Notes: generated from the letters alone by a model not told the origin. 51,250 bases of DNA from a bacterium (GCA_030432155.1 JAUIHQ010000002.1:1-51250); one strand, 5' to 3'. Counted from the first letter of the stretch, positions 25,661-50,200 are shown. Numbers and translations are program-made.

Positions 25661-25677
25661 GATTGGAGAAGCCATCC

Positions 25678-26769
25678 ATGAAGCTCAAAGTAAACAAAGA
25701 CGTTATCCTCGAAGGTCTCCAGCGCGTGCAGTCCGTGGTCGGCGCCCGCACCACCCTTCCAATCCTCTACAACGTGTATCTCAAGGCCGAGGATGACAAA
25801 CTCTGGCTGACCGCCACCGACCTCGATGTGTCGGTCCGGACCCATATCGCCGCCGATATCTCACGAGCCGGCGGGTCCACCCTCCCGGCGAAACGTGTCT
25901 TCAGCATCTGCAATGCCCTCCCCTCCACGGATATCGAGATCAACATCGACGACAAGGATGTGGCCACGATCAAGGCCGGTTCCTCCCGGTTCAAGATCAT
26001 CGGCATCAGCGAGGATGAGTTCCCCCCGCTGCCCAAGTTCGCCGGCGACAAAACCTACACCCTCGACCAGGGCGTGTTCCGCAACATGCTTTCCAACGTG
26101 TCCTACGCCGCCTCGACCGATGAAAGCCGGTACGTCCTCAACGGCGTGCTTCTGAGTTTCAAGGAAGACAAGTTGACGGTCGTGGCTACGGATGGCCGAA
26201 GGATGGCTCTGTATGAGCAGGACGTGGAGTTTCCGGCCGAGTTGCAGGGAGACTACGTCGTGCCGAGCAAGACCGTTCAGGAGCTTCTGAAGACGCTGGA
26301 CAGCGAGGGAAGCCTGAAAGTCATGGTCAGCGAAAACCAGATCGCCTTTGAGTTTGATTCCATGCTGATCATCTCGAAGCTGATCGAGGGTACCTTCCCC
26401 AATTTCCGCCAGGTGATCCCGTCGCAATGCGAGGAGCGGGTGAACGTGGAGCGGGAACAGCTTCTGACCGCGATCAAGCGTGTGGCCCTGGTCAGCGACA
26501 AAACCACCTCGGTCACGCTCGGGTTCTCCAAAAACCACCTCGAGCTGGTGGCGGTGGCCCCGGACGTCGGCGAAGCCACGGAAACCATTGCCGTCAAATA
26601 CACCGGCAAGGAACTGCAGATTTCCTTCAACCCCGAATTTCTCGTGGACAGCCTCCGCAGCCTGACCAACGACGAAATCGCCCTGGAGTTGACCGACAAC
26701 CTCAGCCCCGCCGTCCTCAAAACCGACGCCCCCTTCCTCTACGTGCTGATGCCGATGCGGGTGCGGTGA
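25678..26769 (+). CDS. dnaN: DNA polymerase III beta sliding clamp.
   Basis: GGAGAAG RBS, then MKLKVNKDVILEGLQRVQSVVGARTTLPIL...; about 364 aa, adjacent to dnaA. Confidence 0.95.
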   Translation: MKLKVNKDVILEGLQRVQSVVGARTTLPILYNVYLKAEDDKLWLTATDLDVSVRTHIAADISRAGGSTLPAKRVFSICNALPSTDIEINIDDKDVATIKAGSSRFKIIGISEDEFPPLPKFAGDKTYTLDQGVFRNMLSNVSYAASTDESRYVLNGVLLSFKEDKLTVVATDGRRMALYEQDVEFPAELQGDYVVPSKTVQELLKTLDSEGSLKVMVSENQIAFEFDSMLIISKLIEGTFPNFRQVIPSQCEERVNVEREQLLTAIKRVALVSDKTTSVTLGFSKNHLELVAVAPDVGEATETIAVKYTGKELQISFNPEFLVDSLRSLTNDEIALELTDNLSPAVLKTDAPFLYVLMPMRVR

Positions 26770-29923: not shown

Positions 29924-30880
29924 TTATGATGGCTGATGAGGTTCGAGCACCCAGCGGCTGTTGAACCAGAAATACTGCTCCGGATGCTCGAGGATGAATG
30001 CAGTCATCCGGTTCATGACATGCGTGGTAAGGCGGATGATTTCTTCGTCACGATGTGCATTCGCATCCGGGTGGATCGGTTCCTCGATGATCCATTGGTG
30101 ACGAGTCCAGCCGATGCGGGTGGTATAGGCATGATAGATCGGCACATTCGCTTTCCACGCGAACAGGGCCATGCCGCCGGCGAGGCTCGCGGTGTGATTC
30201 AGGAACGGCACGTCAATCGCGGTGGCCGGATCTTTCGATCGCAGATCAGGCAGGATGGCCAGCACTTCCCCCTTCTTCAGCCGCCGGATGACTGAACCGA
30301 GAGCCCGGCTGTGCCGTTCCACCACCCCCATGCCAAACCGGGTCCGCATCCGGTTCAGGTACGCATCCGTGAGCGGATTCCGCTGCCGCCGCATCATCGC
30401 GAAGAGCGGCATGCCGTGCAGACTCAACCCGATCCCCGCGAGATCCCAGTTGCCGCTGTGGCATACCGCGACCACCGCCCCGCGTCCCTCGCGGGCACGG
30501 GCAACGAGCTCCTCGTGCCCGGAGCAGGTTGCAATCTTCCAGATATTCTCCTCGGTATAACGGGGGGTCCGCATGAGATCGATGGCGTTAAAGAAAAGGT
30601 TCCGCCAGGCAATCCATACCGCCCGCCGGATCGCCCGGCGGTCCATGCGGTCGCCCATGACCGAAGCCATCCGCCGGCGGGCCTCCACGATTTTCTTCCG
30701 GGCCGGAAGGGATGCGGTACCGGCCAGCAGCCAGCCGATGAATAGCGCTGCCCGGTAGGGAAGGATGGATACAAGGAACGAGACGCCGCGAAGCAGGGCG
30801 TATTCGAGGATATGACGGGGCCGGTGACGCACAAACGGACTATGAAGGAGGCCGGGGGAGGCGGGCAAGTTCTTGATCAA
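29924..30880 (-). CDS. LpxL/HtrB-family lipid A (lysophospholipid) acyltransferase.
   Basis: HX4D motif CHSGNWDL, LPDLR, and a C-terminal EQYFWFNSRW motif typical of lauroyl/myristoyl acyltransferases. Start is TTG 30880 or GTG 30831. Confidence 0.8.
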   Translation of the reverse strand: MIKNLPASPGLLHSPFVRHRPRHILEYALLRGVSFLVSILPYRAALFIGWLLAGTASLPARKKIVEARRRMASVMGDRMDRRAIRRAVWIAWRNLFFNAIDLMRTPRYTEENIWKIATCSGHEELVARAREGRGAVVAVCHSGNWDLAGIGLSLHGMPLFAMMRRQRNPLTDAYLNRMRTRFGMGVVERHSRALGSVIRRLKKGEVLAILPDLRSKDPATAIDVPFLNHTASLAGGMALFAWKANVPIYHAYTTRIGWTRHQWIIEEPIHPDANAHRDEEIIRLTTHVMNRMTAFILEHPEQYFWFNSRWVLEPHQPS

Positions 30881-31541
30881 CCTCCCGGGGTTCTTCCATC
30901 AGCACCCGGAACCCGACATCGCGATCCCGGTAGGTTGCATTCATGAACACCCGGAGATCGACCCGTAGCATTGATGGCGCATCCTCGGCCCAGCTTCCTC
31001 CCATGATCATCGGCTCCCCATCGTCGCCACGACACCATTCCGCGACATTTCCCGCCATGTCAAAAAGCCCGAAGGCATTCGGCGGATACGATGCGACCCG
31101 AGCCGGGCCCGAGGCATCGAACACGCAGCGATTCGACCAGCTCCCCCACCCCCAAGGAAACGGCGCTCCGAATATGCCGCCGCGAGAGGCCCGTTCCCAT
31201 TCGCCGGCCGTCGGCAACCGCACGGTTTGACCCGATTCCTTCCCGAGCCATTCACAGTAGGCTTCCGCCTCGCTGATATCGATTCCGGTGACCGGGTCGC
31301 GGGGATGACCGGCCATCGGTTCCCGCCCGGTTGCTTCACAGTACCGGTTGAACTGATCCACCGTGACCTCCGTCGCCGAAAGGCGAAACGTGTTTTCATC
31401 CTCCGAGCGGGGGATAAGGCGGGAAGGGTATTCCGCAACCCGGCCGGACAGGACGCCCGCCGCGACGGCCAGGACCAGCAGGAGACCGGCAACGTAACGT
31501 TTTACCTCTCGGAAAATCCTCGTTTTGAAAAGGTTCATCAT
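30840..31541 (-). CDS. Formylglycine-generating-enzyme (SUMF1/FGE-sulfatase) domain protein, membrane-anchored.
   Basis: TEVTVDQFNRYC, RLPTAGEWERA, NAFGLFDMAGNVAEWC, GGSW, GFRV. Confidence 0.85.
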   Translation of the reverse strand: MMNLFKTRIFREVKRYVAGLLLVLAVAAGVLSGRVAEYPSRLIPRSEDENTFRLSATEVTVDQFNRYCEATGREPMAGHPRDPVTGIDISEAEAYCEWLGKESGQTVRLPTAGEWERASRGGIFGAPFPWGWGSWSNRCVFDASGPARVASYPPNAFGLFDMAGNVAEWCRGDDGEPMIMGGSWAEDAPSMLRVDLRVFMNATYRDRDVGFRVLMEEPREVDQELARLPRPPS

Positions 31542-31555
31542 GTGCGGATAACTTT

Positions 31556-31585
31556 TTGACAGGGAATGATCGGATTGACTAGTAT
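31556..31585 (+). promoter_or_regulatory. Possible sigma70-type promoter for the 31635 gene.
   Basis: TTGACA (31556-31561), an 18-nt spacer, then TAGTAT (31580-31585), about 50 nt upstream of the ATG. Confidence 0.3.
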
Positions 31586-31634
31586 TTCCGCGCACGGATC
31601 ATCAATTCGGATTAAACTCAAGGCAGGTGGCGTA

Positions 31635-32473: not shown

Positions 32474-33244
32474 ATGTTCTCCGCCGATACCCATGTGCAC
32501 GTATATCCGTGCTATGACCTGGACAGGTTTCTCCGGAACGCCCGGACCGGACTTCTCGCTGCCGGCCACCCCGCCCTTCTCTGTCTGACCGAACGGCATG
32601 ACTGCCGTTTTTTCCAGGATCTTGCCGGCGGAACCGTGAATCTTCCCGGGGGATACCGGGTGGAAGCCAGCGGTGAGGCCGAGGCGGTTTCGATTGTTCA
32701 TGACGATGGCGACCGGTTGTTTGTCGTTGCCGGACGGCAGATCGTGACCGCGGAAAAGATCGAAGTGCTGGCCCTCACCCGAGACCTGGAACTCAAGGAC
32801 GGCAAACCGGTCCGGACGGTTCTCGACGACATTCTTCACCAGGGCGGGATTCCGGTTCTGAGCTGGGCCCCCGGCAAGTGGATGTTCAAGCGGGGGCGGA
32901 TCATCGATAAACTGATTGAAACCTGCTCCCACGATTACTTTCTTCTCGGGGATACCTCCCTGCGGCCCACCGTCTGGCCGACCCCGCGCTTGATGAAACT
33001 CGGCCGCAAACTAGGGTTTCGAACCGTCTACGGCTCCGATCCCCTTCCGGTTCCCGGCGACGAAGAGCAGGTTGCGTCCTACCGCACCCTGTTCCATGCC
33101 GACTTCCGTCCCGAGCTCCCCGCATCCTCCCTGCGCTACGCCCTTACCCATGCCTCGGTACAAACCGAACCGCTCGGTTCGCGGGGGACCGCGGCGACGG
33201 TGTGGAAACGTCTGCGGGCGAATGAGGCTGTTCGGAGAGGATAA
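32474..33244 (+). CDS. Hypothetical protein with an N-terminal DTHVH metal-binding-like motif (PHP/amidohydrolase-like).
   Basis: MFSADTHVHVYP start. 256-aa ORF with coding-like composition; the family call is weak. Confidence 0.5.
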   Translation: MFSADTHVHVYPCYDLDRFLRNARTGLLAAGHPALLCLTERHDCRFFQDLAGGTVNLPGGYRVEASGEAEAVSIVHDDGDRLFVVAGRQIVTAEKIEVLALTRDLELKDGKPVRTVLDDILHQGGIPVLSWAPGKWMFKRGRIIDKLIETCSHDYFLLGDTSLRPTVWPTPRLMKLGRKLGFRTVYGSDPLPVPGDEEQVASYRTLFHADFRPELPASSLRYALTHASVQTEPLGSRGTAATVWKRLRANEAVRRG

Positions 33245-33388
33245 GACTTGCCCCCCGCGGATGCTCGTGGAGCAGCCCGTCTCGGAAAACCCTGAGATTC
33301 ATCAGGAAGGCAGGCCCGAAACCCGAAACCTGACACCTTAAATCATACCATTCCTTCCCGGCCGGACTTCTGGTAGATTGTCCGGGCC

Positions 33389-34588
33389 ATGCACGATGTG
33401 GAGGACAAACCGGGACGGATTCTGATGGTGACATCCCTCCCCTATTTTCAATGGCGCGGGTCGCCGATCCGGATCGGATTCAACCTCCTGGCCGCAGTGA
33501 AGAACGGATATGAGGTGGACCTGCTCACCCTTCCGGTGGGCGAGGACAAGCCGGTCGACGGCGTACGCATCCTGCGGGTCGCCAATCCCTTCAACGTCAC
33601 CAACATTCCCATCGGCCCGTCGTTTCACAAGCTGGTGTTCGACATGCTGCTTCTTGTCCGTGCGGTCGGCCTCGCCCGGAGGAACCGGTACCGCATCGTC
33701 CATGGTTTCGAGGACACCGGTCTTGTCGCGTGGATCGCAGCGAAGGTATGCGGAGCGAAAACGGTATTTGAAAAGCATTCGGATCCGGCATCTCATCGCG
33801 ACAAGCCTCTGAAGAATCTCATCCTCATGCTCTACCGCTGGGTGGAGAAGCGGGCCATGCGGCGTGCCGATGCGATCATCGGGACCGGAGAAAGTCTATG
33901 CGATATGGCCCGCGCCGCCGCACCCGGCAAGCCGGTGCATCATATCTTTGATATCCCGTCGTCGCTGGTCGAACCCGATCCGGATGAAGCGCAGACCATC
34001 CGGCAGTCGCTTCAGGCTTCCCCGGACGAAGTTCTCGCCCTGTATGTCGGCTCGTTCGCGGTGTACCAAGGTCTCGATCTGATGTTCAAAGCCATGCCCT
34101 ACGTGGTGAAGCGCCATCCCCATGTCCGCTTCATCATCATCGGGGGAACCGACGGGGAGATCGAGGAGCGCCGGCTCTGGCTTCGCAACAACGGGATGGA
34201 AGACCGGGTAACGTTTCCCGGCAAGGTGCCGCCGGACCGGCTTCCTCATTATCTCGCGGCCGCGGATATACTGCTTTCGCCCCGCAGTTCCGGAGTCAAC
34301 ACGCCGCTCAAACTCCTGGATTACATGAAAGCGGCCCGGCCGATCGTCGCCACCGACAACCCCGCCAACCGGAAGATTCTCGATGATTCCTTCGCCATTC
34401 TCGTGGAACCCCATCCGCCGGCGTTTGCCGACGGTATTTCCCATCTCGCCGGCGACGAGGATCTTCGGCTCCGTTTCGGGGCCAACGGGCGTCAGCTTAT
34501 GGATGAAACATTCAATTTCGAGGAATTTGCCCGGCGGCTGGGCCGGTGTTATGCTGAAGTCGCCGGTGCTCCGGAAACAGAATCTTAA
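33389..34588 (+). CDS. GT4 (GT-B fold) glycosyltransferase.
   Basis: ILMVTS...; C-terminal half FIIIGGTDGE, FPGKVP, ADILLSPRSSGVNTPLKLLDYMKAARPIVATD (E-x7-E-like region). Confidence 0.85.
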   Translation: MHDVEDKPGRILMVTSLPYFQWRGSPIRIGFNLLAAVKNGYEVDLLTLPVGEDKPVDGVRILRVANPFNVTNIPIGPSFHKLVFDMLLLVRAVGLARRNRYRIVHGFEDTGLVAWIAAKVCGAKTVFEKHSDPASHRDKPLKNLILMLYRWVEKRAMRRADAIIGTGESLCDMARAAAPGKPVHHIFDIPSSLVEPDPDEAQTIRQSLQASPDEVLALYVGSFAVYQGLDLMFKAMPYVVKRHPHVRFIIIGGTDGEIEERRLWLRNNGMEDRVTFPGKVPPDRLPHYLAAADILLSPRSSGVNTPLKLLDYMKAARPIVATDNPANRKILDDSFAILVEPHPPAFADGISHLAGDEDLRLRFGANGRQLMDETFNFEEFARRLGRCYAEVAGAPETES

Positions 34589-34673
34589 TACCTCATGGCT
34601 GGATTTAACCAAGCCGGTCAGGGTAGGATAAAACGATTTCCTCGGTGCATGCGTTAAACGAATACAATACCCG

Positions 34674-37469
34674 ATGCTTGTTTCTCGTTCATACAGACGG
34701 ACAGTTGTGCTGCTCCTCTGGGCGGCCGTTCTCGGCCTCAGGCCGGTTTCGGCTCAGGAAGGCATGGGGCCGGATGAAGTGTACCAGCTCGGGCTGACCC
34801 ACTTTACGTCCGGCAAATTTGCCGATGCCATACCGAACTTCGAGTATCTCATCGACATCTTCGGTAATGAACCTTCTCTGCAGGACGTGATCGAAGCCTC
34901 CTATTACGGACTCGGCTGCAGCCAGTACAACATCGGTCAATACACCGAGTCGATCGCGACCTTCCGTGACTACATCAAGAAGTTTCCATCCGCGAAGTTG
35001 CTCGATGAGGCGATGTTCCGGATTGCATCGGCTCACCAGGCTGTCGAGGCCTACGGTGATGCAGTCGACGCCTACCGCGAGCTGCTCGAGAAACAGCCGG
35101 ATTCCCTGTTCGCTGAAGATGCCGCGTTTCAGCTCGCTCTCTGCTACATGGCCGATGAGAATGCTTCCGCCGCCGCGAAGGCCTTCGCCTTTTTCGTCGA
35201 GACGTTTCCCCGATCCGACCTCAAGCCCCAGGCTTACGTGTTCATGGCCCGGTCCCAGCTTGATAACGGCGACTACAAAACCGCTCTCGATACACTGGTC
35301 AAGGTCGGAGAGTACGCCAACCGCTTCGAGCATGTCGTTCATGCAAACTTCATCGCCATGGAGATCGGCGATCTCGCGTTTGAGGATACCGAGTACCGCC
35401 TTGCCCTGAAGGCCTTCCGCCGCGTCCGTACCATGAATTCGCTGATTCGGCTTCAGGAGCGGCAGATCGACCGGACGGAACAGCAGCTTGCCTTTCTTTC
35501 CCGCCAGCGGGTGCGCCCCTCCGAGGTTGCTGAGCATTTCCGCAAGGAGCGGCGGCTGAGGATGTCGCTTTCCACGCTCAAGGACGCGCTTGAACAATTG
35601 AAGGAAACCCCCGACTACGATGCCGGGGTGTTCCACCGGATCGGACGTTGTTTCTACAGCATCGAACGCCTGTGGGAAGCGCGCACGGCCTATCGCCGTG
35701 TGATCGAGGAAGCAGACGATCCGGTGCTTCAGGAAGCGGCCGGGTTCGACCTGATCCTGACCCTGAGCCGGTTGCGCCGGTTTGATGAACTGATTGCCGC
35801 GGCCGATCAGTACCTCGACCGGTTCGGAGACGATCCTGAGCTGATTGAAAAGGGCCGGGTGCCTGCGGTGGCATTCATGCGGGCGGAGTCGTTCCTCAAT
35901 CGCGAAATGTTCGAGGCGTGCGAGACCGAAATGGCCAATCTGATGGAGGTGTATCCCGATCATCCCCGCATGCCGAGGATCCGGTTCTACCATGCGCTTT
36001 CGATGGCGATGCAGGAGAAGTTCAGTGAGGCGATTCCCGCGTTTGAGGAGTGGCTCAAGGATTATCCCGACCACCACGTGGCGTCCGAAGTGTCCTACTG
36101 GCTCCCGGTTTCGATGTTTTATGACAGCCGGTATGAACAGGCCATTCCTTTGCTCGACGCCTATGTGAAAGCCTACCCGATGTCGGTCTACACCCCGGAA
36201 GCGGCGTATCGTTCGGCCTTGTGCAAGTATGCGCTGGAGCGATACGGCGAGGCGGCGGAGGAATTGGATGCATGGCTGATCAACCATCCCGATCACCTGT
36301 TCAAATGGGAGGCCCGGGTGACGCTCGGTGATGCCCTGGCCGCGGAAGGTGAGCTGGAGCGGGCGGAGGAAGCCTACCGCTCGGTCACCGCGGAGGCGGG
36401 GCCGTTGCATTACCTGGCCATCAACCAGCTCAACAAGGTGTACAAGGCGCTGGATAGCGAAGAGGCGTATGTTTCGATGGCCAAGGTGCACATCGATTAC
36501 ATGCAGGCAAACCCGGAATCACCGAACATGGTGGAATCGGCCTTCCACGCGGGGTGGGCGCTCCGGCAGCTCGACCGGTCGGACGAAGCCCGCAGGCTGT
36601 ACTGGCAGACAATCAAGAAGTTCGGCGATCAACGGGACTGGGAAGGATTCCAGAAGCTGTTCGGTGATCTGCCCCTGTTGTACCGCGACGAGCCGGACGG
36701 CCGGTTGTATGCCGACTTTGTCGATGCGATGGAAGAGGCTCGCGAGGAAGGACACCGGGTGCTGCTTGCCCGCCTGGTGAAAGCCGAACTCGACAATCGC
36801 GGACGGGATGAAGCGGAGATCGCCGAGGAAATGCTGCGCCGGTTCCGCATCCAGGAATTCGGTCCTGAACTGCTGGCCTTTCTCGGAAACGCCCTGGTGA
36901 AAAGCGGCGATCCGGCGCAGGGGATGACCTTTCTGGAGTTGCTGCTGGAACAGCATCCGAATTCCATGTTTGCCGATGTCGCCTACGCCCGGAAAGCCGA
37001 AGCCCTGCTGGCGTCGGGCAACAACGAAGAGGCCCTGGCCTACGCGGATATTGCGGTTGCCCGTGCGACCGGGCCGGAACTGATGATGGAAGCGGTGTTT
37101 GTCCAGGGCCGTGCCCTGCAGGCGCTGGGGCGCAACGAGGAGGCGCTGGAGGCATTCCGCAATGTCCTGGCCAGCCGCGCCACCCCCCAGGCGCTGAAGC
37201 CGGAGGCGATGCTGGCCGCCGCGGCCTGTCATGAAGCGATGGATGAAACCGCCAAGGCCATCCCCTATTATCAACGCATTTACGTCATGTACCGCGCCTA
37301 TTCCGACGCCGTGGCGGAAGCCTACATGCGAAGCGCCCGGGCCTTCATCACGCTGCGCGACCGGGCATCCGCGATCAACACCTACCGGGAAATGCTGAAC
37401 ACGGAATCTCTGCAGGGCCGCCCCGAGCTCGAGGCAGCCCGGAAGAAACTTGCGGAGCTGGAGTCATGA
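34674..37469 (+). CDS. Large periplasmic TPR-repeat protein (931 aa), first gene of the ExbBD-VWA operon.
   Basis: Signal MLVSRSYRRTVVLLLWAAVLGLRPVSAQE, then many YbgF-like TPR units (e.g. GKFADAIPNFEYLI, GQYTESIATFRDYIKKFP). Confidence 0.85.
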   Translation: MLVSRSYRRTVVLLLWAAVLGLRPVSAQEGMGPDEVYQLGLTHFTSGKFADAIPNFEYLIDIFGNEPSLQDVIEASYYGLGCSQYNIGQYTESIATFRDYIKKFPSAKLLDEAMFRIASAHQAVEAYGDAVDAYRELLEKQPDSLFAEDAAFQLALCYMADENASAAAKAFAFFVETFPRSDLKPQAYVFMARSQLDNGDYKTALDTLVKVGEYANRFEHVVHANFIAMEIGDLAFEDTEYRLALKAFRRVRTMNSLIRLQERQIDRTEQQLAFLSRQRVRPSEVAEHFRKERRLRMSLSTLKDALEQLKETPDYDAGVFHRIGRCFYSIERLWEARTAYRRVIEEADDPVLQEAAGFDLILTLSRLRRFDELIAAADQYLDRFGDDPELIEKGRVPAVAFMRAESFLNREMFEACETEMANLMEVYPDHPRMPRIRFYHALSMAMQEKFSEAIPAFEEWLKDYPDHHVASEVSYWLPVSMFYDSRYEQAIPLLDAYVKAYPMSVYTPEAAYRSALCKYALERYGEAAEELDAWLINHPDHLFKWEARVTLGDALAAEGELERAEEAYRSVTAEAGPLHYLAINQLNKVYKALDSEEAYVSMAKVHIDYMQANPESPNMVESAFHAGWALRQLDRSDEARRLYWQTIKKFGDQRDWEGFQKLFGDLPLLYRDEPDGRLYADFVDAMEEAREEGHRVLLARLVKAELDNRGRDEAEIAEEMLRRFRIQEFGPELLAFLGNALVKSGDPAQGMTFLELLLEQHPNSMFADVAYARKAEALLASGNNEEALAYADIAVARATGPELMMEAVFVQGRALQALGRNEEALEAFRNVLASRATPQALKPEAMLAAAACHEAMDETAKAIPYYQRIYVMYRAYSDAVAEAYMRSARAFITLRDRASAINTYREMLNTESLQGRPELEAARKKLAELES

Positions 37470-38374
37470 AGCGGGGTGTCGTCATCCTGATGCTGGCGGC
37501 GCTGCTGGCGCCGGTGTGGACGCGAACGGCTGCGGCCCAGGGAAGCCGTGAGCGGGGACTCGGACCGGTCACCCTCCTGACGCCGCGCGGTGAACTGGAC
37601 GTCCGACTGATCCGGCGCGAGCGCGATCTCGTGTGGGTGGACCGTGAAACCCGTTCCGGCACGTTCATCGAAACCGGGGTGCCGGTGAGCGACATCCAGG
37701 CCCTTCGCTACGAGGAACCGCGCCTGTTCAGCCTCGCCGAAGCCGCACGCACACCCTCGCAGATGCGTACGGTCATCGAGGCATTGGATAAGATGATTGT
37801 CCAGTTCTCCCCGTACCTTGACCTGCCGAACATCCCCTCCATCCGCGCGCTGGAGATCAAGGCGTCGCTACATGAAAGCCTCGGTGAATGGGACGAAGCG
37901 ATTGCCGCGTACCGGGAGCTGCTCGACAAGGATTACCGGCTGGAGGATCGCGACACCATCCAGTTGCGGACCGGCCTGGCCGGGGTCCGGGCGGGCCGGG
38001 CGGAGGAGGCGCTGGCCATGCTGGAAACCGCGGAGATTCCGGAGGACGATCTCGTGTTGATGTCGGACGTGCGGATGGCCCGGGCCCGGGCTCATACCGC
38101 CGCCGGCAAACCGGTGGAGGCGGTCAATGACCTGATGCACCTGGTGGTGTTTTATCCGTTTGTCCAGACCAACGAGGCCCGCGCCCTGTCCGCCGTCGTT
38201 CCCAATTACATCGAGCTGGGTGACTGGAGCGCGGTGACCCGAACCCTCGAGGCATTGAACGACCAATATCCCGATTCGCCCCATACCGCCTCGGCGGAGA
38301 TGGCGGTGGAACAGCATCGATCCGCACTGGAAGAAGAACAAGCACGGGCGTTGCCCGACATGCCCGAAGAATGA
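37466..38374 (+). CDS. Periplasmic TPR-like protein (302 aa).
   Basis: ATGA overlap with the upstream TPR gene. Signal MKRGVVILMLAALLAPVWTRTAAAQ. TPR-like GEWDEAIAAYRELLDKDY. Confidence 0.75.
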   Translation: MKRGVVILMLAALLAPVWTRTAAAQGSRERGLGPVTLLTPRGELDVRLIRRERDLVWVDRETRSGTFIETGVPVSDIQALRYEEPRLFSLAEAARTPSQMRTVIEALDKMIVQFSPYLDLPNIPSIRALEIKASLHESLGEWDEAIAAYRELLDKDYRLEDRDTIQLRTGLAGVRAGRAEEALAMLETAEIPEDDLVLMSDVRMARARAHTAAGKPVEAVNDLMHLVVFYPFVQTNEARALSAVVPNYIELGDWSAVTRTLEALNDQYPDSPHTASAEMAVEQHRSALEEEQARALPDMPEE

Positions 38375-38389
38375 CATGAGGACACCATC

Positions 38390-39169
38390 ATGAAACGAAC
38401 CCTGATGACATGCATACTGGCCGCCGGCATCGGCATACTCGGGGGCCTGACCCTGAATGCCTATGCCCAGGAGGCCGAAGCCGCCGCGGCCCCGCAGAAG
38501 ACAACCCTGTTTGACCTGATCGCCGCCGGCGGTTGGGCGATGTGGCCGCTTGGCGCGTTGTCCTTTGCGATGATCGCCATGGCCACGATCAACTATCAAA
38601 AGGTCAGCGAGAAGAAATTGATTCCGCAGGCCGCGCTGGGCCAGATCAAGGCCGCCGCCGACCAGCAGAATGCGCGACAGGTCTATTCCATCGCGACCAA
38701 TGTCGACAGTCTCTTCACCAATGCCCTCGCCGCGGGATTGCGGAAGTTCAATCTCGAGGATCCGGCGGAGAGCAAACACAGCGTTGAGGATGCCATCAGC
38801 GAAGCGGTGTCGCGTGAGGAATCCCAGATCGGGTTCTGGATCAACTTTCTCTCGCTGATTGCGGCGGTGTCTCCGATGGTGGGACTGCTCGGTACGGTCA
38901 GCGGCATGATCGGCGCCTTCCAGAAAATCGGCGCCGGGGGCATGGGCAAACCGGAGTTGCTGGCCGGGGATATCGGCCAGGCGCTGATCACCACCGCCAC
39001 CGGCCTGATTATCGCCATCCCCGCGATGTTCTTCTTCTTCCTGTTCCGCAATTCGCTGAATCGCCTGATTCAGAAAGCCGAAGAGGAATTTTCCTACGTG
39101 CTGGATGACCTCACTGGCACCGGCATGGGTCTGATGGATGCCGAAGACGTGGAAGAGGTTGAAGGGTAA
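38390..39169 (+). CDS. exbB: MotA/TolQ/ExbB proton-channel protein.
   Basis: Signal-like N-terminus, then GLLGTVSGMIGAFQKI...IGQALITTATGLIIAIPAMFFF, typical of ExbB/TolQ. Confidence 0.9.
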   Translation: MKRTLMTCILAAGIGILGGLTLNAYAQEAEAAAAPQKTTLFDLIAAGGWAMWPLGALSFAMIAMATINYQKVSEKKLIPQAALGQIKAAADQQNARQVYSIATNVDSLFTNALAAGLRKFNLEDPAESKHSVEDAISEAVSREESQIGFWINFLSLIAAVSPMVGLLGTVSGMIGAFQKIGAGGMGKPELLAGDIGQALITTATGLIIAIPAMFFFFLFRNSLNRLIQKAEEEFSYVLDDLTGTGMGLMDAEDVEEVEG

Positions 39170-39205
39170 GGAGCGGGAACCGCCGTACCCGGCAGGATAT
39201 CGACG

Positions 39206-39667
39206 ATGAAGCTGAAGCACCGCAACAATCCGGATCTCGACATCGACATGACGCCGATGATCGACTGCGTCTTCCTGTTGCTGATCTTCTTCATGTGCGT
39301 GGCGTCGATGTCCAAGGTGGATCTGACCCCGGAATTGGAGCTCCCGGTGGCGCCCAAGGCGTCCATCCCCGAGGATCTGCGGGCCCGCGGCGTGATCAAC
39401 ATCCTGCCCATCGGGGCCGAGACCAGCGCACAGGAAATTGTGACCGAGGATTCGCCGTTCATGGTGTCCGGACGGCTGACCGACGACAAGGGCTTGAGCC
39501 GGGCCATTTCTGAAAAGCTCGCGCAGGAACCGGATTTGCGGGTGTATATGCGGATCGACCGCAACGCGGATTTCGGACTGGTGCGCCGCGGGATCAAGGC
39601 CTGCGCCGAGGCCGGGGTGTACGACATCATTTTCGCATCCTACCAGAGCTCGGGAGGCGGAGGCTAA
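39206..39667 (+). CDS. exbD: ExbD/TolR family protein (paralog 1).
   Basis: DIDMTPMIDCVFLLLIFFM with the conserved TM Asp, and a periplasmic ExbD fold. Confidence 0.9.
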   Translation: MKLKHRNNPDLDIDMTPMIDCVFLLLIFFMCVASMSKVDLTPELELPVAPKASIPEDLRARGVINILPIGAETSAQEIVTEDSPFMVSGRLTDDKGLSRAISEKLAQEPDLRVYMRIDRNADFGLVRRGIKACAEAGVYDIIFASYQSSGGGG

Positions 39668-39669
39668 CC

Positions 39670-40110
39670 ATGAAGATTCGCCGCGCAACCGAGATTCCGC
39701 TGAAGATCGACATGACGCCGATGATCGATGCGGTGTTCCTGCTCCTGATCTTTTTCATGGTCACCACCACCCTCCACCGGCAGGAAGCGGATATCAGCTT
39801 TGCCTTGCCCGGGGTGGCCCAGCAGGACGAACCGGTGGAAATTCCCGACGAGCAGATCATCGAGATTTATGGCGACGGCGTGGTGATGCTGAACGGGCTT
39901 CAGTATGATCCTCCCGGCGTACCGGACATGCCGGAGCTGGTTGAAACCCTCACCCGCTTCAAGGCGACCGCCGATGCAAACAAGGTCGAAGCGATGATCA
40001 CCATCGCGCCCGATGCCGACGTGAAGCATCAGCGGGTGGTCGATGTGCTGAATGCCTGCGCGGCGGCGAAGATTGCCAATGTAACCTTTTCCGTGGACGA
40101 GGAGAGCTGA
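39670..40110 (+). CDS. exbD: ExbD/TolR family protein (paralog 2).
   Basis: KIDMTPMIDAVFLLLIFFM with the conserved TM Asp; 2-nt gap to paralog 1. Confidence 0.9.
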   Translation: MKIRRATEIPLKIDMTPMIDAVFLLLIFFMVTTTLHRQEADISFALPGVAQQDEPVEIPDEQIIEIYGDGVVMLNGLQYDPPGVPDMPELVETLTRFKATADANKVEAMITIAPDADVKHQRVVDVLNACAAAKIANVTFSVDEES

Positions 40111-40112
40111 CA

Positions 40113-41144
40113 ATGCTCAGGCAACTGTTCTCCATCTGGAACCGGCCGGATCACGGCGATCGAAAATCGCCGCTCACCGCGGTGATCGTCAGCATCGTGT
40201 TTCACATTCTCCTGCTGTTCGGAGCCGGGTACCTGACGGTGATGGTGCTGCAAAGCCGGGAAAAAGTGATGTTCGAGGCCAAGAAGCCTCCGTCGATTCC
40301 CGCCCGCAAGCTCGAACACAGCATCCGGGTCAAGCAGATGCAGCAGCAGGTGCGCAAACCCCAGATCCTTCAGCGTCTGGTCTCCCAGGCTCCCAGTGCC
40401 GTTGCGTTGCCTGAGCTCCCGAAGATGGATGCGCCGGATATCCGCAACATGAGGGACACCCCGATCCTCAACAACAGCCAGAGCATGCTCGGTCAGCTCG
40501 GTCGGGACGGCGGCGGCCTCGGCCGCGGCATGACCGGGGGCGGCGGGTATTCTGATGCGAAGTTCTTTGGCCAGAATGTCCGCACCCGCGCGGTGTGCAT
40601 CCTGTTCGACTGCACCGGCAGCATGTATTCCAAGGGCGTGGTTACGGACGTCAAGCGTGAGGCGTCACGCATGCTTGAGGAATTGAATCCCGCCACCAAG
40701 TTCAACCTCATTGCCTTCGTGGACGGCGCCGAAGGCGTGACCCCAAGCCTCGTGTTCGCCATTCAGGAGAACAAGGAGAAGGCCATCGCCTGGCTGGATA
40801 CCATCCAGGAAAACCGACAGGGCAACCGCAGCGGCTATTCCGGCAGTACCCCCGACCAGGCGATTCGTATGGCGGTGGATATCGGCGCGGACACGATCTT
40901 TCTGCTGACCGACGATTTTCCGAACCTGTCAAAAGTAGTGAACGGCAACCGGGAGAGGATTGATGACCATGCCGATCAGCTCGAGGATTTCATCCGCGGG
41001 ATCGAAACCCAGTACGGACGTTCGGTAAAGATCAACCCCATCCTCTACAAGCCCAACCAGGGCCGATCCGGCGATGCATCCCGGGACTATTGGAAAAAAA
41101 TCGCCCGCATCACCGGCGGCAAGATGCAGGTCATCGAAGACTGA
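40113..41144 (+). CDS. TonB-position protein: TonB-like SxxxH signal anchor, Pro/Gln-rich linker, and a C-terminal VWA (MIDAS) domain.
   Basis: Anchor VIVSIVFHILLLFGAGYL (compare E. coli TonB LLSVCIHGAVVAGLLY). VWA: AVCILFDCTGSM (DxTxS), GSTPDQAI, IFLLTDD. No TonB C-terminal-like sequence recognisable. Confidence 0.75.
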   Translation: MLRQLFSIWNRPDHGDRKSPLTAVIVSIVFHILLLFGAGYLTVMVLQSREKVMFEAKKPPSIPARKLEHSIRVKQMQQQVRKPQILQRLVSQAPSAVALPELPKMDAPDIRNMRDTPILNNSQSMLGQLGRDGGGLGRGMTGGGGYSDAKFFGQNVRTRAVCILFDCTGSMYSKGVVTDVKREASRMLEELNPATKFNLIAFVDGAEGVTPSLVFAIQENKEKAIAWLDTIQENRQGNRSGYSGSTPDQAIRMAVDIGADTIFLLTDDFPNLSKVVNGNRERIDDHADQLEDFIRGIETQYGRSVKINPILYKPNQGRSGDASRDYWKKIARITGGKMQVIED

Positions 41145-41212
41145 TCAAACGTGCGCGATTCAACATATTGTTGTTGTCGCGGCTACACAAAATGCTTCTC
41201 TGATCTAAGATA

Positions 41213-41267
<55 letters not shown>

Positions 41268-41274
41268 TAACCAA

Positions 41275-44200
41275 CTACTCCGCTTCCCGCCACCGGATCC
41301 GGTAGAAGCGGGAGGTGGATGAATCGGTGTTGGTTTCGACGTACACCATGGATGACCCATCGCCGGTCACACTCATGAATCCGGTCGGCTCCCACGATTC
41401 ATTCGTGCCCAGGCCGGAGGCGGCCATCACGTCGTATACACTGTTGGACAGTCCGGGCCATTCGAGGTGAAACGTACGGTCGTTGGTGTTGACCGAGGAT
41501 CTGGCCTCTCGCCCGAACCAGTCCGCGGGGTTCAGGGGATTGTGACCGGCGGCAAGCTCCTCTCCGTCCGTCTGACCATCGCCGTCGCTGTCCGGTATTC
41601 GAGCTCCCGTTTCCCCGGCATCGGCAATCCCGTTTGCATTGAGATCTTCGGCCAGGTCGGGAATCCCGTCGCCATCGGTATCGAAGGTATCGAGGCGTAG
41701 CTGAAAATATTCCAAGGACTCAAGGTCCCCATCTCCGTTGCCCAACGGAACCTGGTATGCGCCGTTCAAGCCTCCCCCGTCGGCGGTGGCATAGGAGGCC
41801 ACGCTCAGGTACAGGTTCGACGGAATGCGTCCGAAAACCTGCACAAGATCGATCGCGCCTTCCAGATATCCGCCGTTGTTGAACGGGGTGGCCGCGGGAT
41901 GGCTGAGGTCCATGGCGTTGTTAATGAACCAGCCCTCGAAATCACTGTCGTTTTCGTCGGCCAGAAAATGCAGCCTCCCGAACACCCGGCCCGATTTGGC
42001 CCACGGCGCCGACAGGTCGGGATCCGGGTCGTCGGTCACGAAGATGAAGTGGTCGTTGCCTTCTCCCGCATCCTCGGTGGCGACATAAAGAAGCTTTCCG
42101 TTGAAGTCGGCATACAGGTGCAGGACATTCGTGGCGCGAACCGTCGCCGCTTCGGCGTCCGACAGGATGCCGTCGAGCACATAGGTTTTGAGCGGGACTT
42201 CCTGCTGGTTTCCGCCGGAGGTTTCGAACACCACCGCCCCGGTGGCGGGATAGAAGCGAAGGCACTCATTGCTGTCGATGTTGATGTCGAGGTCCTGCGA
42301 GGGCGGGACCTGGTGGGTCGGCAGGATGGACCCGCCGTCGGCGCTGCCGTAAATCCCCACCGCCATCCAGATCGATTCCGGAACCGTGCCGTATTGTTCC
42401 TCGAGATTGATCACCCCTTCGAGCACACCGCCGTTGGGTCCGGTCTTGGCGTTGGCCGATGCCCGGGTGCGGTACCACGAAACAAAGTCATTGTCGTTTT
42501 CGTCGGCGAGGAACGGGCCGTCCAGCGCGATCGTCCCGTTTTTGTTCCACAGCTCCACCTCGACGCCGGCCACGGCCTGCTCGTCATCGAGAAAGATAAA
42601 GTGGTCGTTGCCCTCGCCGGCATCGACGGTGGCGACATACAGAGCCTTGTTCGTGGCGTCGTAGGCTGCATAAAGAGAAATGCCGTTGTTGTGCGCGATC
42701 TGGGGGACTCCTTCGTCAAGCACACCGTCGAGCACGAAGGACCCGAGCGGGTGGAGTCCGCCCGTCCCGGTGCCGGTATCAAAGAACGATTCAAAAGCCG
42801 CGCCGAGCTCCACGGCGTCGGCCGAGGTCGCGGTTGCGCCGATCACGATCCGGCAGCGGGTGTTCTGGGGCAGTAGCGCGTCAGGGTTGAAAACCATGCG
42901 CGTATTCTCATTGAACCAGGAGAACACCCCCGCCGTTTCAGGTTCCATGGAAAACGCGGCCTCGACCGAGCCGGTCTCCATGGACCGGTCGAACTCGATT
43001 ACGATGGACGAAGCCCGGTCAACGCCGGTGGTGTCATGACGGGGGCTGATCGAGATAACGGACGGTGCAAGGGCGATGAGTCGGTCTGACGGGATGTAGA
43101 TGCGGGATTCATACCCGCCGAGGGTCAACGCCACCAGGCCCGGTCCGCCCCCGCTTCCCACCGTCAGGGTGTCGTTGGTGTTGAAGATGTTGACCAGCAC
43201 GGTTCCGTTGGAATGGATCACCGCCGGACCGGATCCGTTATAGATCGCTTCCCGGGAGCCCGAGGCGGTGTTCAGGGCGACGAGAACGCCGTTGGTGTCG
43301 AGGATGCGCTCATACACGTACAGGCCGCTCCCGGCAAAGTCCTGCCACCGTTCCTGGAAGACCCCGCGGCGTAGCTCCGGATACGCCTCGCGCAACAGGT
43401 TCAGGGTGCGGACATGACGGTACAGGGGATGGGTCATATCGAAGTTATCGCCGAGGGACGGGCCGTACTCGAACTCTCCGTCGAACATGTCCTCCCGGTC
43501 ATAGGGATCATTCCCGCCGTCGAACCCCTGCTCCGTTCCGTAGTAGAGGCACGGCACCTGGAGGTGGGTGTAGAGAAACGTCAGGGCGGGATAGAGTCGG
43601 GTTTGGTTGCCGTTCAGCTTGTCCGCGGCAAGCGCCCGCGACATATCGTGATTGTCGAGAAACATGATAAGCTGGTGACGGGCCTCGGGGTCGTAGTCGC
43701 TCAGCCAGCCGTGACGATCGGATATCTGTGAAGTGTTCTGACCGCGGATGAACACATTCTCCATCGTGTTGAGCATGGGAAAATACAAGGCGGACGGAAA
43801 CCGGTTGGTCCCGGTGAAGGCGCCGACTTCGCTATCGAGCCCGCGCCACGCTTCGGCATAGCTGAGAAAGTTGGTTTTCCCGAGGGAGGAGGCATGGTCC
43901 TCGATGGCGGGCAGAAAATACTCCCAGAAATCCATCTCGATGTGACGGGCGGTGTCGACGCGGAATCCGTCGCAGTCCGTGGCCTCGATGAGGCCCTTGT
44001 AGATCCGCACCAGGTCGTCGCGTACCTGTTGATCCTCGGTGCGGATGCCGTCCAGGCCGGAGAAGTCGCCGAGGATCGACTGTGTCGCATCATCCCAGTT
44101 CTGGACATTCCCGTAGTTGTGAAGCCGGGACAGATCATCGAAGGGCGGGGCATGACGGCGGTTGCTGTTGCGCCAGCGCAGGTTGTACCCGTTGATGTTG

Positions 44201-45890: not shown

Positions 45891-46129
45891 TACCCCCCGG
45901 ACTTGAGCCCCATCTCATCCTTCACCTGTCCCTCCACCTTCACTATTCGATATGTTAATTTAAAGTATGGCCCCGAACGGCTTGTAAATTCACATCCGCT
46001 TTAATCACGCGGGCACTGATATCCCGCAGCCTGACCCCTATAATCTTATTTTTCGCCTCCCGTTTCAATTCTAATTGCATCAGGCAAATCTGTTCTCGTA
46101 CGATTTACGATATAGAGGGAAAACAAGGT

Positions 46130-47269
46130 ATGATTATGAATCAAATTCTATCGGTTACCCGAGCCTTGTCCGACCTGCCGTTATTGGTGCTGGTATTTCT
46201 TATCTCTGTTACCACAGACGTTTCCATTGCGGATGAGGTGGACGTTTCATCAAGTCAACTCTATGACACCAACAAATTCACCGGATTGATGGCCAATCAT
46301 GCGGAAGACATCGCAGAACTCGAACAGACATTCGTTGATCATCAATATTCCTATCTGCCCATTGCTCCACCATTCAGTGATTTTGTTCTGGATCAACCTG
46401 CCAATGCTCCCGTGATACCGTTCAGCGTCGAAGGGTTTCCCTCATCATTTAATGAGGGCTTGATTGGCTATTACGAGAACAGCGTCGTTGTCTATCCGGT
46501 AACCATTATGGAGGATGCCTCCACTCGGTATACGGTGTTTTTGAATGAAGACGGACAGGCCATCTATTCCATTGCCCCTGTTTCTGGATATGACCCTTTC
46601 GCCTACCTGAAATATCGGTTTCCCTCCCTGTATACAGGGACAACACACTGGTTAACGGTTCAGGAGTACGAGGACGTCTATGACCCCTCCAGAATCCGCA
46701 TGAAGGCGACACTTATTCCCGATGATTATCTTGAGTTTTACTTGTATGCCGAGCAACAGGTTCAGGCATTTCTACCGTCAATTGGATTTGGAGGAGGCGG
46801 AATGGCCATGATGTCAGGAGGCGGTGGTTCCGACAGCAACATCGTCTTTACCAGCATTCATCTGGCGACCAACGGGCTGGCCATGTGCGTGGCCTATCCA
46901 ACGAATTTCACGAACAGATTGGATATCTTTTCCTGCAACTACATCGAAAAGGAAGCCTGGGAGGTTGCAGCAGGTCAACTTTCTACGACGGGAACGAATG
47001 TCATTACATGGGTGGAAACAAATTCATGGCTGAACGTTCCTCCATTCTATCGCAATTACGCCGCCGCAAATGCGGATATTGATACGGATGGTGATGGCCT
47101 CTCCGACCCCCGTGAAAATATGGTCCATCTGTCCGACCCGACCAATGTTGAAACGGATGGCGACGGCATGAACGATTATGACGAAGTCCAGCAGGGATTT
47201 AATCCTGCCGTTTCAAACCTACCATCAAGAATCACAATTCATTTTCCCGTGAATGGACGTGTTTTGTAA
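46130..47269 (+). CDS. Secreted hypothetical protein with C-terminal thrombospondin-type-3-like Ca-binding repeats; lower-GC island.
   Basis: Signal/TM LPLLVLVFLISVTTDVSIA. Gly-rich linker GFGGGGMAMMSGGGGSD. DIDTDGDGLSDP and ETDGDGMNDYDE. The TAA stop overlaps the ATG of the next gene (TAATG). Confidence 0.65.
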   Translation: MIMNQILSVTRALSDLPLLVLVFLISVTTDVSIADEVDVSSSQLYDTNKFTGLMANHAEDIAELEQTFVDHQYSYLPIAPPFSDFVLDQPANAPVIPFSVEGFPSSFNEGLIGYYENSVVVYPVTIMEDASTRYTVFLNEDGQAIYSIAPVSGYDPFAYLKYRFPSLYTGTTHWLTVQEYEDVYDPSRIRMKATLIPDDYLEFYLYAEQQVQAFLPSIGFGGGGMAMMSGGGGSDSNIVFTSIHLATNGLAMCVAYPTNFTNRLDIFSCNYIEKEAWEVAAGQLSTTGTNVITWVETNSWLNVPPFYRNYAAANADIDTDGDGLSDPRENMVHLSDPTNVETDGDGMNDYDEVQQGFNPAVSNLPSRITIHFPVNGRVL

Positions 47270-50200
47270 TGAGTAACCCAGCATGCAAAGATAATCTTAA
47301 GCAATCCAGGCTGATTCTAGTCGCGGTTGCCTCTATACTATTGTTCTCGGACGCGACCATTTACGCAAATGTCGTTGATACACTGGTCGTGCCGATCAAT
47401 GACAGCCAGCCCGTATCACAGGACGAGACCTGTAGTAGCGAAATTCTCGTAAAAACAATGAACGTCAAACCCGTGTTACCGCAAGGTGCAACAATTACCT
47501 CCTGCGTATTAAATGTAGATTTCATCGATGATGCATTCAAAACCGCCGGAGGGGCGATTGACGGAGGTTTCGATAACTGCGAACCGAGCAGTGGATATAC
47601 AGGCATTGACATGCTTCCATATATCGATACCGCCGTGGGCGAATTCGACATCGAATTATGGGACAAGACCGATCAAACCCCAAGCGGACAAAACGAGGTC
47701 AGCATTCAGGGGAGCGTAACATACATGTACACACTCGACCCGATTGTTCCGCCAATGGATGATACAAACGCGCTACTTGAAACCATTGTTTTTGACGACT
47801 GTAAAAAAGGAGACTCTCCTCTCAAGAAGCTTGGGTGCGGAGCTTGCGGAGACGATGGCAACCCTCAAGCGTATGTAATTGTTGCTAATTTCAACGTATT
47901 AATCATGGACACACCCATCTGGCATGAAACGGAAGTCGGCCCCCCACTGGAATTGAAAATGATTTTCAGTAATTACGCCGAGACAAATTCTGCGAAAACC
48001 TTCGGCCCCAAATGGGACCATAATTGGAACTGTTACGTCAGAATGATCGGCCCCGGCACGAATTCGGTGCGACTGCCATCGGGAAGCATCGTCTCATTTA
48101 CCTCTACGGGGGGAAGTCCGTGGTCTCCACCAAGCACTCTGACAGGCGAATTGATCTTCACCAACAGCGTGTTTCAATACATCAAGCCGGATGGTCAGGT
48201 GCTTCAATATGCGGTATCATTGGGAGATACCAACGTATATCTTCTTGACCGAATATGGGATGCTTGGTCAAACACGGTTGAAGTCAGTTATACGAATGAC
48301 CGTCCATTTCAAGTAACGCAAATCAACCCCGACACGGGAAGATACCTTGAGTTTTCATATACAGGCACGAATGCCCATGCCGATACTGTAAACACAGAAT
48401 CCAACGCTCTCAGGACGGCAACTTTTTCATACGATTCAGCAGGATTTCTGACCAACGTCATAGACATGGGGGAATACGGCTATGTCTACACTTATACCAA
48501 TGGCTTTATGGAGGGCGTCTACAAGGAATCCGTATCAGGCACCAGACGAATGGGATTCTCGTATAGCTCAACTCCCGACACGTGGGACGCTACGAACTCG
48601 CACATTCTGACAACCACGGATGCCGAAGATCGAACAAGAAAATTCACCTGGAAGTTCGGGCTGGTCACAGAAGACACGGAATATCTGTCGCAATCCAACA
48701 GGGAGTACTACGTCATTGACTTAAAAACAAACAAAGGAGCCGTTGTCATTCAACATGGAAACGTCAACGGTGCGTCAAGGTATTATTCTTTTCTCTCCAC
48801 AGAACACATACATGTCTACGAAGACAGAGACGGGGCTGAATGGGATTACACCCGCAACGACAATCACCAGATTACTTCCATCACGGACCCGCTGAATAAC
48901 GTATGGAGCAACGTCTATGACACCAACGGGATCGACCTTCTTTACGTTTCGCCCCCCGAAGGAGAACCACAAGCCTATTGGACCTATGTATCAGGCAAAC
49001 ATGCTGTTGAGACGGAAACCAACGCCTTAGGCAAGGTAACATTGTACCAGTACAATGAACTTGGTCTTGTTACGAACTGGCATGATGGCCGAACAACGAG
49101 TTCGCTTTTTTACGACTCGGAAGGTCGTCTTCTTTCATGGCACAGGAATGGAATCCTGATGGAGACCAATCAGTATGACGCCTTCGGTCGGCTGATCTGG
49201 CAACAGAACTCGGCGGGGCTGATCATGACCAACGCATATGACGATCTGAACAGGCCATTATCTCAGACCTATAACAACAACGGTGAAACATCGACACAAT
49301 CAGTGCAGTATGATTGCTGTTTCATCGACCAAACCGTAGATCGGAAAGGACGGATATCTTACTACACCTATAATGACCTTGGCTGGATGCTGGAAGAGAC
49401 CAACCCGAAAGGGCTGACGAATTACTACGGGTACGGATACCACGGCCAGCCCGAATCCATTTCCAACGTTCTGGAACACGAAACCAGAGAATATACGCCT
49501 GAAGGATGGATTAAGAGACGCGAATTGCCTGAACGCTCCTTTGATGGAACTCATGCGGAGAATTTCTTTTATGACAATGAAGGGCTTCTTACCAAGCAAC
49601 AGGGTCTTGCGGGTGAATTTTACAAGTACGAGTATGATGACCTTGGTCAATTGACGGCAGTCTATGTTCCTGACGGAAGCACCCTCGATTTCGGGACCGA
49701 AGAGTATGTCCGCTATGCCACGAACCGCTACGATCCCAGAGGTCGAGTCGTCTGGTCTACGGACATTCGTGGCCTCGAAACAACCAATACCTACAATGAC
49801 CTCGGCCTGATGACGGGACGCAATCATCCCGACTCAACCACAGAAGCGTGGACTTACAATCCCTGGGGGCAGATTACCAGTTACAAAGACAGGGCGGATC
49901 AGATTGTCAGCAACCTCTATGACAGCGTTGGAAGGCTGATTGAACAGATAGATGCAAGGGGCTTCAGCACTCACTTCGGTTATTCCGACGCTGATTTCGT
50001 TACGTCTGTCAGCAATGAGGTACTGGAGATTGCATGGACGTTTGATTATGACGATGAAGGTCGCATCACCACTATCAATAATCCTGATCAAACGCAGGAA
50101 ACCCGTGCCTATGACACCGTGGGTTCGGTTACTCAATTTGTCCGTGGAGGCATCACGGTTGTCTATGAATATGATGACCTTGATAACCTTACGGCAGTCC

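Follow-up and report, generated by a model that had tools for sequence, protein, structure and literature searches.

What does a Ton/Tol-type proton-motive motor pull on when the last gene of its operon encodes neither TonB nor TolA? This question is raised by a locus at positions 34674-41144 (+ strand) of a 51,250-nt stretch of bacterial DNA (GCA_030432155.1 JAUIHQ010000002.1:1-51250), the whole of which is called the window here. The locus holds six genes, encoding in order two proteins made of tetratricopeptide repeats (TPR), one ExbB/TolQ-like subunit, two ExbD/TolR-like subunits and a protein that ends in a domain of the von Willebrand factor A type (VWA). The list of open reading frames (ORFs) bore out what a first-pass annotation of the window had described, namely six same-strand genes with junctions of -4, 15, 36, 2 and 2 nt, the reading frames of the two TPR genes overlapping by 4 nt. 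We consider it fairly probable (roughly 60%) that these six genes would constitute one Ton/Tol-type envelope machine with the VWA protein as its output subunit.

The sixth gene (40113-41144, +) occupies the tonB/tolA position and encodes a VWA force-transducer candidate of 343 amino acids (aa). Searches of Pfam and NCBIfam at E <= 0.1 found no match to TonB_C or TolA (PF03544, PF06519) in 40113-41144, in agreement with the first-pass annotation, which had put a VWA domain in this place. The expectation that Pfam would recognise all six proteins held for the TPR proteins, MotA_ExbB and both ExbD subunits but not for the VWA domain, on which three Pfam VWA models reached only 15-19 bits against cut-offs of 24-27; its fold was recovered with AlphaFold2 (AF2) and Foldseek. 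In total, 204 homologs of the VWA protein were detected, all of them unnamed, and those with a source label came from metagenome-assembled genomes (MAGs) called Kiritimatiellia, Verrucomicrobia, Spartobacteria or Lentisphaerota. The AF2 model, built on 32 of the 204 homologs, consists of a helix at residues 19-48 (predicted local distance difference test score, pLDDT, of 84-94 over residues 21-50), a low-confidence stretch at residues ~51-146 (pLDDT 43-54) and an alpha/beta domain at residues 150-343 (pLDDT 89-97). When the model was compared with the PDB by Foldseek, the best match was the VWA domain of ITIH4 (E 9e-12), and that of CLCA1 gave a TM-score of 0.77. Other VWA matches were ITIH1, the bacterial structure 4fx5, and pilus and LapA adhesin VWA domains, with E values in the range of 9e-12 to 1e-5. 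Model and matches together confirmed the predicted C-terminal fold as VWA.

As delimited by AF2, Foldseek and alignment, the VWA domain spans residues 147-343 (40551-41141, +), with an FFG hairpin and a metal ion-dependent adhesion site (MIDAS) composed of Asp166-x-Thr168-x-Ser170, Thr246 and Asp267. The first MIDAS motif aligned with D-[IK]-S-G-S of ITIH1 and ITIH4, and all five positions (Asp166, Ser/Thr168, Ser/Thr170, Thr/Ser246 and Asp267) were present in 52/52 orthologs when exchange of Ser and Thr was allowed. Because the site both aligns with that of the ITIH proteins and is invariant, the domain most likely binds its ligand via a metal ion. In phmmer, residues 243-307 also matched malic enzyme (E 8e-4), which was rejected as a local chance similarity in the Rossmann-like VWA fold.

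At the N-terminal end, a transmembrane helix assigned from AF2 and the ortholog alignment covers residues 20-46 (40170-40250, +). Ser27, His31, Ala38 and Thr42 lie on one face of this helix at i, i+4, i+11 and i+15, which is the register of the Ser-His-Leu-Ser (SHLS) motif of TonB and TolA, and they were retained in 45/50, 50/50, 51/51 and 52/52 orthologs, respectively. The SHLS motif is the site with which TonB and TolA bind ExbB and TolQ (PMC12204202).

Proteins of this kind have been proposed before. Working from sequence, Williams-Jones et al. 2025 (Mol Biol Evol msaf138; PMC12204202) described 'vWA force transducers' encoded 3' of TPR-tolQ-tolR-tolR in bacteria of the Planctomycetes-Verrucomicrobia-Chlamydiae (PVC) group, with Tichowtungia aerotolerans (Kiritimatiellota), which has no recognisable TolA or TonB, as the reference organism. 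In members of the class, an SHLS helix is combined with a disordered region that includes a motor box, with a domain II of ~100 residues and with a C-terminal vWA domain (PMC12204202), and in AlphaFold3 models the transducer helix docks on the motor through a conserved His (PMC12204202 section 8, Fig. 4). We compared the window protein with the Tichowtungia sequence taken from the supplement of that paper, in which one Leu was restored from the second transducer. BLASTP aligned the two at E 2e-15 with 24% identity over 214 residues, colinearly through helix, linker motifs and VWA domain, and hhalign gave a probability of 98.9% over 237 columns. Based on this homology, the locus was assigned to the published class, and the window protein is, as judged from its sequence, a member belonging to a shorter subfamily.

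The window protein shares with the published transducers the SHLS-type helix with its His, the linker of ~100 residues, the C-terminal vWA domain and the position after TPR, tolQ and two tolR-like genes. It differs in length, having 343 aa versus 474-476 aa in Tichowtungia and no long insertion in the C-terminal half, and in copy number, with a single transducer in the window versus two in tandem. The first MIDAS motif is a complete DxTxS in the window, accompanied by the T and the D, and D-A-D-K-R in Tichowtungia. Furthermore, there are two TPR genes in the window and three in other lineages, whereas PMC12204202 mentions one. The locus is therefore not a discovery, the class having been proposed in 2025; what is new is a clean, MIDAS-intact, single-copy example together with these refinements. 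The first-pass annotation, which did not recognise a characterised system here, was right in that the system is experimentally uncharacterised, and missed the published description of the class. Its central idea of a motor wired to a non-TonB output gained ground, as the SHLS-register helix and the homology to the Tichowtungia transducer support a physical coupling between the VWA protein and the motor.

The motor subunits are encoded by the third to fifth genes. The third (38390-39169, +) specifies an ExbB/TolQ-like proton-channel subunit of 259 aa with an N-terminal signal-like extension, which matched MotA_ExbB (PF01618) at 1e-29 in Pfam. In NCBIfam it scored 83 bits to TolQ (TIGR02796) versus 51 bits to ExbB (TIGR02797), both below cut-off, and its pore-lining Thr169, Thr201 and Thr202 were kept in 48/48 orthologs. 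The fourth and fifth genes specify ExbD/TolR-like subunits, ExbD1 (39206-39667, +; 153 aa) and ExbD2 (39670-40110, +; 146 aa), which matched ExbD (PF02472) at 6.2e-18 and 3.7e-22. For these two proteins, the TolR and ExbD models of NCBIfam gave 37.6 versus 32.6 bits and 51.5 versus 23 bits, respectively. The motor thus scores closer to TolQ/TolR than to ExbB/ExbD, with all TolQ and TolR scores lying far below the equivalog cut-offs. The names ExbB and ExbD given in the first-pass annotation fit the Pfam families and agree less well with the NCBIfam scores.

Both ExbD paralogs carry the membrane motif DMTPMID[CA]VFLLLIFFM, and the membrane Asp20, which the first-pass annotation had noted in the window copies, was retained in 50/50 orthologs of ExbD1 and 51/51 orthologs of ExbD2. 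The paralogs are 26% identical to each other, with a nearly identical helix and a diverged periplasmic domain, whereas identity to their own orthologs is 48-75% for ExbD1 and 61-77% for ExbD2. This gap between 26% and 48-77% indicates that both copies have been kept since an old duplication, and a pair retained for so long fits a heterodimer. By analogy with known motors, an ExbB pentamer in a 5:2 motor is predicted.

The conservation of the block was assessed in 54 loci of Kiritimatiellia type, one genome per species, which were searched by tblastn with the six window proteins. All six genes were colinear on one strand in ~40/54 loci; 11 other loci were shortened by contig ends, and the shorter contigs still held the ExbB/ExbD-VWA link. 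This six-gene arrangement is far beyond chance, and identity of the VWA protein was 48-70% over at least 54 species. When 1.84 billion representative proteins were searched with a profile, 2004 clusters were returned at E <= 1e-3 and 282 at E <= 1e-10, with matches that in many cases extend from the helix to the VWA domain's end. One of these homologs (P0141), 28% identical, shows the gene order of the block on three metagenome contigs, where genes for a TPR protein of 915 aa and a protein of 306 aa are followed by ExbB, ExbD, a small ORF, ExbD and VWA, and the distant members P0161 and P0125 lie directly 3' of ExbD genes. The linkage of exbBD to the VWA gene, which the first-pass annotation had held to be worth following through related genomes, is therefore conserved, and Kiritimatiellia appear to have the block as a core feature.

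The helix-linker-VWA module may also serve in signalling or otherwise outside the motor. In P0146 (L059 486-2969), a protein of 827 aa, an N-terminal Ser/Thr kinase is fused to this module, and no ExbD gene was called directly upstream on its 4-kb contig. Separately, small genes were seen inserted inside the operon without disturbing its order (L006, L013, L019, L020, L022, L024, L025, L028, L032, L034 and L049), the sites being the ExbB/ExbD1 gap and the ExbD2/VWA gap (7995-8384 and 9478-9897 in L022). The inserted ORFs of 130-150 aa were considered as a third ExbD and rejected; by reading of the sequence, the pair in L022 is a 129-aa protein of GxxExxY type and a 139-aa protein of four-helix-bundle type.

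The block opens with two TPR genes, TPR931 (34674-37469, +; 931 aa) and TPR302 (37466-38374, +; 302 aa), the products of which matched many TPR families in Pfam; for TPR931, which is all-TPR, TPR_6 scored 1.7e-36 and TPR_16 1.7e-29. Against the NCBIfam model tol_pal_ybgF (TIGR02795), TPR931 reached 169.9 bits (cut-off 90.1) in five stretches, and BamD-type TPR was also matched. This score adds up five copies of a generic repeat unit of TPR_6 type, and the CpoB/YbgF match shows a type of repeat, not orthology. The first-pass annotation had both proteins exported by Sec signals, a call made by reading the sequence by eye. Its two signal-bearing TPR proteins stood up in the same terms: in both, a hydrophobic N-terminus precedes an Ala-rich site and a lipobox Cys is absent, and a lipobox-like motif was found in 1/50 and 0/27 of the clustered TPR ORFs. 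Since a lipobox is lacking, TPR931 and TPR302 are probably soluble periplasmic proteins.

Orthologs of TPR931 lie upstream of the motor in ~40 loci. In L003, L005, L014, L015, L022, L034, L049 and L053, the large TPR gene is broken up into two adjacent ones of ~400 and ~800 aa, so that these lineages carry the three TPR genes mentioned above, and in L006 and L008 it is a single gene of ~1200 aa. TPR302 begins with a beta-rich domain of ~60 residues, conserved in an alignment of 18 orthologs, and continues with TPR repeats. Residues 1-125 had no Pfam match, and homolog searches with the full protein or with the N-terminal 126 residues recovered the query itself alone. A single-sequence AF2 model placed strands at residues 31-59 with low confidence (pLDDT <50 for the N-terminal beta domain and 65-90 for the helical TPR region).

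Between the helix and the first VWA-associated strand, the VWA protein has a periplasmic linker of ~100 residues (47-146; 40251-40550, +). As delineated by conservation and AF2, the linker comprises a post-helix box KVMFEAKKPPSIP, a conserved basic segment KLEHSIRVKQMQQQVRKPQILQRLV, a stretch containing Pro and an end rich in Gly. Among 52 orthologs, majority-residue conservation was 0.74-0.91 in the linker versus 0.64 in the VWA domain, with fractions of 0.90 at residues 64-92, 0.91-0.93 at residues 133-159 and 0.58 in the helix. The linker is the best-conserved part of the VWA protein within the class, unlike domain II of TonB, which is generally of low complexity and variable. The post-helix stretch K-V-M-F-E-x-K-K-P-P, in which Phe54 and Pro60 are invariant, sits where PMC12204202 puts the motor box (~55-60). 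The combination of high conservation with low AF2 confidence suggests segments that fold upon binding of a partner, the obvious candidates being the periplasmic domains of the ExbD subunits and the TPR proteins. The distant homolog P0141 does not share this strong conservation, which may therefore be lineage-specific.

With gene content, motifs, VWA fold, homology to the published class and synteny established in this way, a mechanism can be proposed, the steps of which are taken over from homologous systems. ExbB/TolQ would form a pentameric proton channel around a central dimer of ExbD1 and ExbD2, probably a heterodimer, to which each subunit would contribute a proton-binding Asp20. The VWA helix would dock on the outside of the pentamer via its Ser27/His31/Ala38/Thr42 face, as TonB and TolA do, and the conserved post-helix stretch would engage the ExbD periplasmic domain. 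The linker would carry the VWA domain across the periplasm, where its metal site may grip an acidic residue of a partner, and proton flow would then pull on the partner so bound. The two TPR proteins may serve as scaffolds or adaptors, possibly on the conserved linker.

Several observations weigh against such a machine. Within the helix, Ala38 and Thr42 stand where the E. coli motif has Leu and Ser, and AF2 gave no motor-box beta-strand in residues 47-63 (pLDDT ~51-53). Co-transcription of the six genes is inferred from their spacing alone; promoter and terminator scans over 33200-41500 counted no more sites than expected from shuffled sequence and are uninformative on a single transcript. For the published class, no deletion phenotypes are reported and the function is called unknown by the authors (PMC12204202). 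When the flanking ORFs of the 54 loci were clustered, no conserved partner gene emerged, nor did a VWA-domain partner adjoin the block in any lineage. The recurrent flank families were shared between close relatives only and were metabolic (CN hydrolase, ArgJ, amino acid kinase and AMP-binding/thioesterase). As the flanks vary between lineages, the conserved unit is the six-gene block itself. Even within the block, three loci from rumen MAGs (L033, L043 and L044) keep ExbB-ExbD-ExbD-VWA and have other genes in place of the TPR pair, and their VWA proteins retain the conserved linker and the MIDAS site. The TPR proteins are therefore maybe not obligatory; in these MAGs, their genes may lie elsewhere in the genome or have been lost. 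In L043, the TPR place is taken by an ORF that reads as aminotransferase-like and by an unrecognised ORF.

A more basic objection would be that no force is transduced at all, the VWA protein forming a static periplasmic or Bat-like complex with the TPR proteins, or regulating or anchoring the motor. Bat operons do pair inner-membrane VWA proteins (BatA/BatB) with TPR proteins (BatC/BatE); weak NCBIfam matches to BatC were found in the block, Foldseek matched the BatB-like VWA structure 4jdu of Bacteroides fragilis aerotolerance at E 2e-6, and the kinase fusion P0146 has the module with no ExbD gene called directly upstream. However, the block has ExbB-ExbD-ExbD in addition and a motor-binding His in the anchor helix, and no MoxR ATPase, DUF58 or BatD gene occurs in it or among its neighbours. 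The invariance of that His in TonB register and the strict exbB-exbD-exbD linkage are hard to explain without contact with the motor, and with MoxR, DUF58 and BatD missing as well, a static complex is rather improbable. If the VWA protein is coupled to the motor, it might energise outer-membrane transporters as a surrogate for the C-terminal domain of TonB. The homologous ExbB and ExbD subunits with their catalytic Asp, the tonB position after exbB-exbD-exbD and the Ser-x3-His helix with the same face in TonB register would suit this role. The TonB box, however, is captured by adding as a beta-strand to the C-terminal domain of TonB, an option that a VWA fold does not offer. The window protein also differs from TonB in having neither TonB_C nor a Pro-rich rigid spacer, and no Plug or TonB_dep_Rec domain, and hence no TonB-dependent receptor, was found among ~32 large ORFs scanned in the window. 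Kiritimatiellia degrade polysaccharides, and Pontiella has TonB-dependent transporter domains near glycoside hydrolases; yet Pontiella also has PF03544, an ordinary TonB (PMC10880615), and a study of Kiritimatiella glycovorans detected no systems for TonB-dependent uptake (PMC5148204). A TonB-surrogate role is thus less likely, and we regard it as very doubtful.

Returning to the proposed envelope machine, two targets for its pull have to be weighed, Tol-Pal and a surface apparatus. In the former case, the block would be a TolQ-TolR-TolA(-CpoB) arm in which the VWA domain replaces TolA domain III and captures TolB or Pal through its metal site, serving outer-membrane stability in division. All three motor proteins score best against TolQ/TolR, the large TPR protein has units of CpoB/YbgF type matched at 169.9 bits, and conservation of the VWA protein at 48-70% identity over at least 54 species is housekeeping-like. 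The window block adjoins genes for a lipid A acyltransferase and a family 4 glycosyltransferase (GT4), and outside the window tolB-pal is present without an annotatable TolA in K. glycovorans (PMC12204202 supplement) and neither TolA nor TonB is recognisable in Tichowtungia (PMC12204202). Nevertheless, the TolQ/TolR scores fall far short of equivalog cut-offs and the CpoB score is added up over generic repeats; the window has no TolA domain III, and its TPR proteins of 931 and 302 aa are encoded before the motor, as compared with ~260 aa for CpoB. Furthermore, the recurrent flank gene families and the scanned flank genes of the 54 loci included none resembling tolB or pal, no search having been aimed at TolB or Pal directly. 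A substitute for Tol-Pal is accordingly a possible role, but not a probable one. The more specific proposal of a Tol-Pal arm in which a MIDAS-bearing VWA domain stands in for TolA domain III and the linker is the docking site of the TPR proteins is put forward still more tentatively; if true, it would amount to a force-transducing catch that works with an integrin-like metal site, and to a new solution to outer-membrane tethering. In the latter case, the motor would drive a gliding or adhesion machine, as in the Agl-Glt system of Myxococcus with CglB, and gliding motility has been suggested as a function of the class (PMC12204202). Its parts resemble those of the block in that both include a TolQR-type motor, TPR proteins and a MIDAS-bearing VWA domain, and PMC9946355 shows that a VWA adhesin works together with a TolQR-like motor. 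CglB, however, is a surface-exposed outer-membrane lipoprotein, whereas the window protein has no lipobox and its N-terminus is an uncleaved-type helix (residues 19-48); tethered in the inner membrane by this TonB-like helix, it cannot itself get to the surface or be a surface adhesin. The flanks examined held no Glt-like outer-membrane or envelope-spanning genes linked to the block, and the block is well conserved and present in nearly all of the MAGs sampled, all of which makes gliding a highly unlikely use of the motor. The motor nearer to TolQ/TolR, the CpoB-type repeats, the class-wide conservation, the K. glycovorans tolB-pal without an annotated TolA and the inner-membrane tether are suggestive, and for these reasons a Tol-like envelope role appears more likely than gliding as the target of the machine.

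The window is chromosomal with a GC content of ~60%. Upstream of the block, the GT4 glycosyltransferase gene (33389-34588, +) lies on the same strand and ends 85 nt before it; a GT4 gene is also found upstream of the block in L009. Other envelope-related genes on that side are the lipid A acyltransferase gene (29924-30880, -) and, next to it, a gene for an FGE-sulfatase-type protein (30840-31595, -). Downstream comes a convergent gene for a 1155-aa alpha-amylase-domain protein, and the block is therefore taken to end at 41144. Two antisense ORFs, 34689-36491 (-, 600 aa) and 37868-39688 (-, 606 aa), were dismissed as high-GC artefacts, whose counterparts elsewhere cluster together because the sense genes are conserved. 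Farther upstream, dnaA (23953-25341, +) and dnaN (25663-26769, +) are adjacent, which identifies the window as the dnaA-dnaN region, a common site of replication origins. Elsewhere in the window are genes for a further, separate TPR protein of 414 aa (11637-12881, -) and for a GGDEF diguanylate cyclase (15246-16418, +), and scans of the window for tRNA and Rfam families gave no matches. At its far end, the GC content drops from ~0.60 to 0.47-0.49 (46001-51250); at 46130-47269, this part encodes a protein of 379 aa that carries a bacterial TSP3 repeat, and from 47269 an RHS-repeat ORF of >1327 aa extends past the window end. The region may be a horizontally acquired toxin-type island.

Ton and Tol were for long the only known routes by which a TonB/TolA-type tether passes proton-motive energy across from inner to outer membrane. 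A VWA domain with a metal-dependent site would be a third output domain for such motors and would widen the range of what they pull on, and the identity of the VWA ligand would be a real advance.

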